From the IMG/VR virus record IMGVR_UViG_3300045988_073633, positions 1 to 56,177 of that record: a stretch of 56,177 bases of DNA; one strand, written 5' to 3'. This DNA is from a virus. Made by a program: the position numbers and the translations under genes. Shown piece after piece: positions 19,581 through 20,943 of this stretch. A model generated the notes under the pieces. It was given only the letters and a program-made list of their open reading frames with translations. It had not been told where the DNA came from and ran no database searches. Every line of letters starts with the position of its first letter. Positions within the stretch are counted from its first letter, which is position 1.

Positions 19581-20943
19581 TCAATACTTAATATTCATAT
19601 TTCCGTGTTCGTTCACCCAGTCAATAACTTCTGCGTATGTCACGCCATTGTTCTTCAAGACATATAGCAGATTATGAAATTTAGGATGTGTTTCTTTCAG
19701 CCTTAAAAATCTGCTTTCTTTCTCTAGGTGACATCCGAATCCGCACAATACGCAGCCAGTCCTTTGACAGCCTGTGGTTTTCAGCAATGGTCTTTCGTTG
19801 CCAAAAATCCCAAAATCCGCAAATGACATCTGATTTTCGCATTGCCCCATAGCTTCATAATCTGTAACTACTTCGCCATAAACGGAACATATAGGCAGAT
19901 TATTTTCTTTGATGTAAAGCAACACATCCTGTTCTGTCCAAAATGACATAGGGTTGCTATGCGGTCTTTTACAATCAAATGCATTGCACCCCTCTTGTAG
20001 CCATTTTTGTGTCCTTGCCCTACTTTCTGTAGCCATAGTTGCCAAGATTGGCTTTCTTCTTGTTTTCTTTTCATACTCGTGTGCTGGTTCTTTCTTGAGA
20101 TAATCACAGCACTTGTCGCTGATATCGAATGGCGCGTCAAGGGTAAATTTATATTTCTCCATATTAAATTGTGACTTTCCACCATCATTGTCGAGTAAAA
20201 CGCCATTTAACCTATCTAAGCGGTATTTTGAACCACTAGGGATAACTCCCATCTGCAAACTTTGATAATCCGCATTGCCTTTGTTTACTCTCCTGTCTAT
20301 TCCTAACAAGTCTGCCATGTAGCAAGCATATGGAACTGTCTGTCTGTCTGTCTGTCTGTCTGTCTGTCTGTCTGTCTGTCAAGATTATGCTGCTGTTACT
20401 TTTACTGTCAAGACATTTTACATATCTTCTCGCACCATCTATGCAGTTTGCAATTTCTTTTCCAAAAAGCGGAAATCCATACTGTTCGCAAACCTGTGCA
20501 AACGAAATCTTAGGTTTCAAAATCACAAGGTTATCAAAAGTCTGCGCAAACTCCTTTAACTCTGGATATTGAGTGGGTACATCTACGAACACAAAAGGAA
20601 TATTTTTATATCCGCAAACTTCTCTGATTATGTGTCCTAAAACTGTGCTGTCTTTACCACCGCTAAATGACAGATACACTCCATCTTCGCCAAACTCATT
20701 TACCCAATCCCTAATTCTCTGCTTTGTCATTTCGACCTTTGCATTTAACGGCAAAGATTGCATCTGATACAATTCGCTCATAGTGTGTGCATTCTCTTTC
20801 GAGAATGCTTCACACGTCTGAAAACTAGCAGGAGAAGTGTTGTATCTTTCCGATTTTGAATTTTGACAAATATATTTCTTCGTGACCGGATCTTGATTAT
20901 TGTATTTGCAAAATCCGCAAACTTTATTGTTTGACATCTTCAA
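19581..20943 (-). pseudogene. PAPS-reductase-family (DndC/CysH-like) gene split into two ORFs by a tetranucleotide tract
   Basis: SFSGGKDS P-loop in ORF 20236..20943. ATMATESRAR and the CC..LK motifs are in ORF 19581..20318. The frames differ by 1 nt across (CTGT)11. Confidence 0.7.
20336..20380. repeat. (CTGT)11 tetranucleotide microsatellite inside a coding region
   Basis: 45 nt of perfect CTGT repeats read directly. Encodes TDRQ repeats on the minus strand. Confidence 0.95.

Follow-up and report, generated by a model that had tools for sequence, protein, structure and literature searches.

Is a phage gene that is interrupted by a tetranucleotide microsatellite simply broken, or can the repeat switch it on and off? 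This question is raised by a gene of the PAPS-reductase family on the minus strand of a 56,177-nucleotide (nt) viral genome (IMG/VR record IMGVR_UViG_3300045988_073633, analysed over its whole length and called the window here), which is split at positions 20336..20380 by eleven CTGT units. An original prediction, made from the sequence of the window, proposed a candidate slipped-strand phase switch. Comparison with other sequences supports that proposal through the variation in unit number among relatives and the otherwise intact state of the OFF alleles. The tract is best read as a hypermutable simple-sequence contingency locus within one PP-loop enzyme gene of a temperate gut phage, a reading with a probability of about 0.8; the on/off switch itself is held with slightly greater confidence.

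A tetranucleotide tract within one gene

Tandem Repeats Finder (TRF) describes the tract as CTGT x 11.2, with a period of 4 and 100% matches, corresponding to (ACAG)11 on the coding strand. The eleven complete units account for 44 nt (20336-20379), and base 20380, previously counted among them, extends the period. This is the sole microsatellite with at least four tetranucleotide units in the window, and arrays of five units appeared in 0 of 100 dinucleotide-preserving shuffles of the window sequence. It is a perfect tandem repeat inside an open reading frame (ORF), and its unit length is not divisible by three.

Both predicted ORFs are present: a 5′ ORF of 235 amino acids (aa) that contains SFSGGKDS and a 3′ ORF of 245 aa that contains ATMATESRAR and CC..LKK. 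Their frames are offset by one base (20943 - 20318 = 625 = 3x208 + 1), and the tract is free of stop codons in all three frames, each of which encodes the cyclic peptide TDRQ. Between tract and Met-20318 there are 17 or 18 nt according to how the register is set, where 18 nt had been given before. No Shine-Dalgarno sequence is found in the 17 nt (TTCCATATGCTTGCTAC) that precede this first Met of the 3′ ORF. When the gene is rebuilt in silico with other unit numbers, a single ORF results at n=7 (448 aa), n=10 (452 aa) and n=13 (456 aa). Loss of one unit or gain of two therefore does restore one ORF, as proposed, with the expected 452 aa reached in the former case. With n=11 the product is 235 aa long and ends at a stop 33 codons past the tract, and with n=12 it is 214 aa long and ends 14 codons past the tract. 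The window thus holds the truncated, +1 OFF state, one unit removed from ON. The gene likely starts at ATG 20937, 8 nt past a GAGGTG, which would make the ON product 450 aa long rather than the 452 aa counted from TTG 20943; this start agrees with the 450-aa gene called on an identical contig (L215, below).

That the tract interrupts one gene is borne out by Pfam PF01507, which spans both halves in two stretches at 58.8 bits against a cut-off of 22.5; the halves are therefore parts of one gene. A match to PHROG 424 covers residues 57-422 of the rebuilt protein. Among 5.8 billion proteins searched for homologues there were 7,795 matches, the best 120 of which are all single proteins of 382-447 aa rather than two separate gene products, and the TDRQT or TDRQTDRQT of the best homologues aligns exactly with the window tract.

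A first AlphaFold2 model built from a shallow alignment (A1) reached a mean predicted local distance difference test (pLDDT) score of 35 and was discarded. A second, built from an alignment of 115 diverse sequences (A2), reached a pLDDT of 86 and a predicted TM-score (pTM) of 0.81. The only segment of this 398-aa construct with a pLDDT below 50 comprises residues 131-146, SIILTDRQTDRQTDRQ. In the model, the tract is thus predicted to encode a disordered surface loop that follows a long helix, which explains how ON alleles tolerate 4 to ~19 units.

The identical single-stranded DNA-binding protein (SSB), encoded beside the PAPS-reductase-like gene, was found on 7 contigs by exact look-up. In an 8,429-nt alignment of the window with contig L215 (ENA ERZ28621735 scaffold_192, 56,153 bp) there are 0 mismatches, and the sole difference is a 4-nt gap that corresponds to one ACAG unit. 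The L215 tract is (ACAG)10, and an intact gene of 450 aa is called there. L215 comes from another assembly, and it and the window could share one sample or not. A further contig, L216 (Logan assembly, SRR1761718), is 100% identical to the window phage and stops within the tract, a break presumably due to the short k-mer of the assembler and not to heterogeneity.

Unit number, frame state and selection among relatives

Relatives were compared for the presence and unit number of the tract. At 80 IMG/VR loci found by protein search, (ACAG)n occupies the same codon site with n=2-17. The same-site tract is seen in relatives ranging from 97% to ~53% amino-acid identity, the distant ones having different flanks; they include metagenome-assembled genomes (MAGs) of Feifaniaceae (53% identity, n=8, OFF) and Acutalibacteraceae (54% identity, n=7, OFF). 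Unit numbers also differ within pairs of ~99% identical loci (L005 vs L013 and L009 vs L031). In two lineages the site is occupied by another tetranucleotide, (GAAC)13 in L046 (3420-3471) and (ACGA)10 in L052 (3412-3451), both in frame and encoding NERT-type repeats. Homologues lacking an ACAG tract number 13; 12 of them are intact, L046 and L052 included, and no fixed split gene occurs in the group. Some lineages are tract-less, and a 336-aa relative (L081) is without the entire insertion that holds the tract. A second variable insertion of ~40 aa, absent from the window, follows a YIKEN motif in several homologues (P0040, P0045, P0101, P0110-P0112 and P0117).

The window's own left flank, scanned across IMG/VR, gave no match, nor did a megablast search of 19000-22000 against INPHARED phages. 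Deposited phages searched by tblastn contain relatives at no more than 46% identity, with compact genes; the nearest infect Ruminococcus, Clostridium perfringens and Clostridioides difficile.

Because protein ranking favours intact genes, frame states were surveyed at the DNA level, by scanning a pattern of both flanks and a variable gap over IMG/VR and a metagenome collection. The survey yielded 110 unique human-gut contexts with 3-17 units, of which 37 are ON, 41 OFF +1 and 32 OFF +2, with no departure from uniformity (chi-square p = 0.57). Frame usage depends on tract length (Table 1). Tracts of 3-4 units are ON in 9 of 11 contexts (p = 0.0014 against one third), and the ON fraction drops as the tract lengthens (Spearman -0.38, p = 5e-5). 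Short, stable tracts keep the ON frame, and long, unstable ones are scrambled over the frames. This is the pattern expected if the single chain is selected and switching in long tracts outpaces the sampling of lineages.

Table 1. Frame state by number of ACAG units in the 110 contexts
Units	ON	OFF +1	OFF +2
3-4	9	0	2
5-7	12	6	9
8-10	9	12	10
11-13	6	15	8
14 or more	1	8	3

The OFF alleles are otherwise intact. The allele set comprised 115 unique tract-bearing segments of ~900 nt each, running from the P-loop to a CxLCGFGCH motif. In 59 of the 60 OFF alleles the frame is open on both sides of the tract across the ~900 nt, at 3-45% divergence among alleles, and in a first sample 38 of 40 OFF alleles gave one ORF by a one-unit change alone. 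Nei-Gojobori ratios of non-synonymous to synonymous substitution (dN/dS) are 0.075-0.089 when both alleles of a pair are OFF, 0.073-0.157 when both are ON and 0.07-0.12 when the states differ. OFF alleles are thus under purifying selection, a sign of reversible states and not of decay.

A complementary signal comes from lineages in which the tract has decayed. In the P0074 type (L024-L029, L040, L067; 153 contigs, the longest of 385 kb), all that is left of the tract is ACAGACAGACAA, and the loss of 2 nt located 16 nt further downstream compensates for the shift (TATATGGCAGA to TATGTCAGA). The outcome is a short frameshifted peptide, FHMLAMSDPLG, within an intact protein, in effect a 'locked-ON' lineage. 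L030 likewise has a compensating indel, with a 20-nt spacer and a frame that is still open. Decayed-tract lineages have thus regained one ORF through compensating indels, as would follow from selection for a single chain.

Several observations weigh against the phase-switch reading. From five units upward the frames are used at random (28/99 ON), which also fits a frame-neutral locus. Among the metagenome loci (L159-L214), contigs below 45 kb are 3 ON/18 OFF and those of at least 45 kb 16 ON/19 OFF; given this excess of OFF in short, low-coverage contigs, some unit counts may be assembly errors. The survey counts are also not phylogenetically independent. Finally, no partner of the DndD/SspC/BrxC type adjoins the gene, and its matches to DndC, SspD and BrxP are limited to the P-loop. 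The excess of OFF in short contigs could reflect either assembly noise at low coverage or the fragmentation of heterogeneous populations. Integration makes no difference to frame state, contigs longer than 70 kb being 7 ON/7 OFF and phage-length ones 9 ON/12 OFF.

The random use of frames by long tracts would be accounted for if the repeat were a neutral microsatellite in a tolerant linker, where one chain or two half-proteins work equally well and length drifts freely. Purifying selection that acts equally on both halves in ON and OFF alleles fits this explanation, as does the prediction that the tract falls between sub-domains, in a disordered loop. The 3′ ORF begins with Met-208, a residue that does not vary in A1. 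Translational coupling is conceivable in the +2 state, where the stop of the upstream frame lies 12 nt beyond this ATG. In the +1 state of the window, however, the upstream ORF ends 80 nt past the ATG, making coupling implausible, and no Shine-Dalgarno sequence precedes the Met. Free drift is also at odds with the ON bias of short, stable tracts, with the single ORFs of nearly all homologues that have no ACAG tract, and with the compensating indels that restored one ORF in decayed-tract lineages. A neutral linker is therefore considered unlikely.

Miscounting of units by assemblers, with a true length that is fixed and in frame, is a less probable source of the variation still. Tracts longer than the k-mer loop in the assembly graph, L216 ends within its tract, and OFF is enriched among short, low-coverage contigs. 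Yet OFF is common even where the tract is only 20-40 nt long, and because such tracts are shorter than typical assembly k-mers, assembly error does not serve as a general explanation: OFF makes up 15/27 contexts at 5-7 units and 22/31 at 8-10, lengths below typical final k-mers and within read length. It also makes up 19/35 in contigs of at least 45 kb. The 3-17 unit range recurs across independent studies and assemblers, and the decayed tracts with their compensating indels are traces of real past frameshifts.

Ordinary pseudogenisation, in which a dispensable gene decays and happens to be broken at the tract, is very improbable. OFF genomes do make up roughly two thirds of those assembled, and annotation pipelines often handle the gene as accessory; against this stand the lack of a second lesion in 59/60 OFF alleles, their OFF-OFF dN/dS of about 0.08, the ON state of the identical genome L215, and a tract that is pure over deep divergence, with another unit at the same site in two lineages. 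OFF alleles might instead be rescued by recoding, through ribosomal frameshifting or through transcriptional slippage at the repeat; since all frames are open and encode the same peptide, a shift at any point of the tract would go unseen in the protein. Such recoding is equally improbable: the sequence offers neither a slippery heptamer nor a homopolymer, ACAG is not known as a repeat on which RNA polymerase slips, and the ON preference of short tracts and the compensating indels indicate that the DNA frame matters.

A proposed switching mechanism and a related tract in a C5 methyltransferase

In the contingency-locus reading, slipped-strand mispairing during replication of prophage or lytic DNA would add or remove 4-nt units. 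With no stop in any frame and a loop that is predicted to be disordered, tract length would be tolerated and frame alone would matter. An in-frame tract (total units = 1 mod 3; 10 or 13 here) would yield the full 450-aa enzyme (ON). The other frames would meet a stop 14 or 33 codons past the tract and leave a PP-loop fragment without the half that carries the Cys cluster (OFF). Switching within populations is probably fast and reversible, and the enzyme presumably acts on nucleic acid, within a neighbouring block of modification or anti-restriction genes (Lar-like, Mom-like, methyltransferases). A population of lysate or lysogens might then consist of modifying and non-modifying phages, which would give cover against hosts that restrict unmodified DNA as well as those that restrict modified DNA. 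Such bet-hedging through DNA modification is a tentative proposal, modelled on the example of T2 agt (bioRxiv 10.1101/2025.10.21.683753).

Variable tracts of three kinds, ACAG, AGAGC and TTAC, occur in a C5 cytosine DNA methyltransferase of related phages; these tracts belong to the relatives and not to the window. An (ACAG)n tract lies 475 nt past the PC motif in L006 (6409-6464, n=14), L091 (7773, n=9) and L139 (11643, n=14), and at the same site in L177 (n=5), L181 (n=7), L191 (n=5) and L210 (n=12). At this site other relatives (L020, L033, L041, L043, L058, L059, L122, L173, L185 and L206) have a pentanucleotide, (AGAGC)n with n=4 to 16, which encodes SRAEQ repeats. A further tract of 3-5 TTAC/ACTT units is located just ahead of the PC catalytic motif in L006 (5912-5931), L020, L033, L041, L058, L091, L100, L122, L139, L177, L185, L191, L206 and L210. 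In L006 and L210 the PC motif is out of frame with motif I; motif-based scoring of ON and OFF was only partly successful. At the TTAC/ACTT tract, L210 and L191 are one unit apart, with identical flanks.

The left flank CAACACAATCTT(A/G) is common to the methyltransferase tract and to that of the PAPS-reductase-like gene, as if a switch cassette had been copied between the two genes. A portable cassette of this kind, with a left flank ending in CAATCTT(A/G) and coding for NTIL-TDRQ, would switch both enzymes. GAAC, AGAGC and TTAC units might have arisen at cassette sites, and populations would present mixed modification states to defences that are blocked by modification or depend on it. It is possible, though somewhat less likely than not, that temperate phages of human-gut Clostridia hold a selectively maintained set of phase-variable genes with a shared ACAG cassette and an undescribed DNA modification.

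Enzyme family, gene neighbourhood and known systems

The enzyme belongs to the PP-loop/PAPS-reductase superfamily, as its PF01507 score, its SGGKDS PP-loop and its fold match attest. The top Foldseek matches in the PDB are PAPS/APS reductases (6vpu, 2goy and 1sur; E = 3e-4 to 8e-4, template-modelling (TM) score 0.55-0.58 on the target). Matches in BFVD are uncharacterised phage proteins or ones labelled PAPS reductase, and a profile search of PDB sequences gave no match. The Cys-rich second half may hold an iron-sulfur cluster, for which the invariant Cys-Cys pair (Table 2) would provide ligands by analogy with APS reductases.

The description of the protein as a relative of DndC and BrxP stands at the superfamily level and fails beyond it, the matches spanning only 47-50 aa round the P-loop. 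The PADLOC models of BrxP and SspD match residues 87-140 only (E about 4e-6), and both assignments were rejected; so was DndC, for which no NCBIfam model matches the protein. Assignment to CysH was rejected as well (NF002537, 25.9 bits against a cut-off of 154; TIGR00434, 25.8 against 165), as was an IbrA-like identity, which calls for DUF3440 beside the PAPS-reductase domain and for a ParB-like IbrB partner, since DUF3440 gave no match and no ParB-like domain was present in the ORFs scanned (14.2-33.1 kb). Phosphorothioation systems need a P-loop NTPase partner of the DndD/SspC/BrxC type (PMC12914056). The only SMC-like ATPase (29093-30988) is 8 kb off and matches SbcC and LmuB.

In the window (20782-20943) and in homologue P0005, the protein begins with a 54-aa Cys-rich extension (CxxC...C...C) that is missing from most homologues. 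On either side of the gene region, at 19227-19577 and 21397-21696, are small Cys-rich ORFs that resemble it (PHROG 10714).

The features of the locus and its surroundings are collected in Table 2. On the coding strand the order is SSB, the PAPS-reductase-like gene, a Cys-rich small protein, a Lar-like protein, two unknowns, a Mom-like protein and an N6/N4 DNA methylase. Both the methyltransferase and the Lar-like protein named earlier as members of the block are thus present downstream of the gene, together with the Mom-like gene. In Dulem virus 39 the homologue adjoins a cytosine methyltransferase. This genomic context points to a putative role in nucleic-acid modification or anti-restriction.

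Table 2. Positions of the features discussed, within the window
Feature	Position	Strand	Evidence or remark
(ACAG)11 tract, candidate switch element	20336..20380	-	TRF, sequence, shuffles, unit-number series
PAPS-reductase-family (PP-loop ATP pyrophosphatase) gene, frameshifted	19581..20943	-	PF01507, PHROG 424, single-protein homologues, L215 gene
5′ ORF: N-terminal Cys-rich extension, PP-loop half, tract, 33-aa out-of-frame tail to stop	20236..20943	-	ORF list, rebuilding
PP-loop motif SFSGGKDS, ATP pyrophosphatase signature	20647..20670	-	Sequence; invariant in alignments A1 and A2
3′ ORF, remainder of domain	19581..20318	-	Sequence, ORF list
Invariant Cys-Cys pair (DKCCDYLKK)	20106..20111	-	Invariant in A1 and A2
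Cys cluster C-x4-C-x2-C-x3-C (GCQRTGCVLCGFGC)	19731..19769	-	Cys 2 and 3 invariant, Cys 1 nearly so in A2
SSB gene, directly upstream	20959..21387	-	PF00436; handle for finding identical contigs
Lar-family restriction-alleviation-like gene	19030..19230	-	PF14354, E = 3.9e-10
Mom-like/XF1762-family DNA-modification-type gene	17749..18198	-	PF25680; NF045478, E = 2.4e-56; PHROG 1384
N6/N4 DNA methyltransferase, CcrM-like	16086..16913	-	PF01555, E = 1e-31; NF050803, E = 1.8e-34, below cut-off
Reverse transcriptase of retroelement	26264-27325		PHROG 1423, E = 6e-100
Template repeat of retroelement	27374-27471		
Avd of retroelement	27498-27890		
Variable repeats of retroelement	27884-27981, 28504-28601		3′ ends of two DUF6273 genes

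That the phage is temperate follows from an integrase (12027-13250), from CI-like helix-turn-helix and Bro/ORF6C proteins encoded elsewhere in the window, and from relatives on contigs 120-230 kb long. A GTDB scan found 4 MAG loci only, assigned to Lachnospiraceae and other Clostridia, so that the host is known just from Lachnospiraceae/Clostridia MAGs and long prophage-bearing contigs. The host of this human-gut phage is probably a member of the Clostridia or Lachnospiraceae.

Tetranucleotide contingency loci are well described in bacteria, the lic, lgtC and mod genes of Haemophilus influenzae being examples (PMC2651432, PMC11868660). The present locus resembles them in having a perfect tetranucleotide tract inside an ORF, one unit of which toggles between a full-length and a truncated product, and in that close relatives are polymorphic in unit number, OFF alleles are otherwise intact and mutability depends on length. 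It differs in residing in a temperate phage of gut Firmicutes rather than in the chromosome of a mucosal pathogen, in affecting a PP-loop enzyme gene, and in the position of the tract, which is mid-gene in a predicted disordered loop, whereas theirs is near the 5′ end. Phasevarions (Type III mod, Type I hsd; PMC5909438, PMC7383803) are alike in that an in-ORF repeat switches a nucleic-acid-modifying enzyme, a role that is putative here, and the C5 methyltransferase of the phage relatives itself bears such tracts. Unlike theirs, the gene switched in the window codes for no methyltransferase and lacks a cognate restriction subunit.

Simple-repeat switches are already known in phages in the form of homopolymers. 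T2 agt and T4 rIIA contain A-run contingency loci, of which that in agt, a DNA-glucosylation gene, trades off two type IV restriction systems; the accompanying survey covered homopolymers of at least 6 nt only, almost entirely in coliphages (Gomez, Barrick & Waters, bioRxiv 10.1101/2025.10.21.683753). Campylobacter phages have polyG tracts in receptor-binding genes, according to a citing article (Sorensen et al. 2021, Cell Rep 35:109214, cited in PMC12823448). Common to these loci and the present one are a slippage-prone repeat in a phage gene, reversible frameshifts and mixed progeny, the last presumed here. In T2, the gene that is switched, agt, serves DNA modification, and the benefit lies in evading opposing restriction systems. 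The homopolymer loci belong to lytic phages with Gram-negative hosts and consist of 6-13 nt of a single base; here a tetranucleotide array of 12-68 nt is found in temperate gut phages, at one site kept over deep divergence and with about two thirds of assembled genomes OFF. In the literature searched, no tetranucleotide switch is described for any phage, for a temperate Firmicute phage or for a PAPS-reductase-like gene. What is new is the long tetranucleotide array in abundant temperate gut phages.

With DndC, SspD and BrxP (PMC12914056) the protein shares the PP-loop ATP pyrophosphatase fold, a wealth of Cys residues and a place among defence or anti-defence genes, but no adjacent DndD/SspC/BrxC-type NTPase, DUF4007 domain or cysteine desulfurase accompanies it. 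Unlike CysH, to which it is 12-14% identical, it is ~170 aa larger and without the ECGLH C-terminal motif.

An array kept at one codon position across a large family, with most assembled genomes OFF, would mean that chance switches a widespread phage gene on and off, one that is routinely annotated as an accessory of sulfur metabolism. Genes of this kind will get mis-annotated as split genes or pseudogenes, and phage 'strains' that are seemingly identical can differ in phenotype. The 10- and 11-unit alleles offer a natural isogenic ON/OFF pair with which the function of a phage PAPS-reductase-like enzyme can be probed.

The window also contains a diversity-generating retroelement (26264-29090), whose repeat copies, read on the + strand, differ mainly at T, that is at A on the coding strand. 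The tract and the retroelement would be two separate programmed hypermutation devices within one 56-kb genome.

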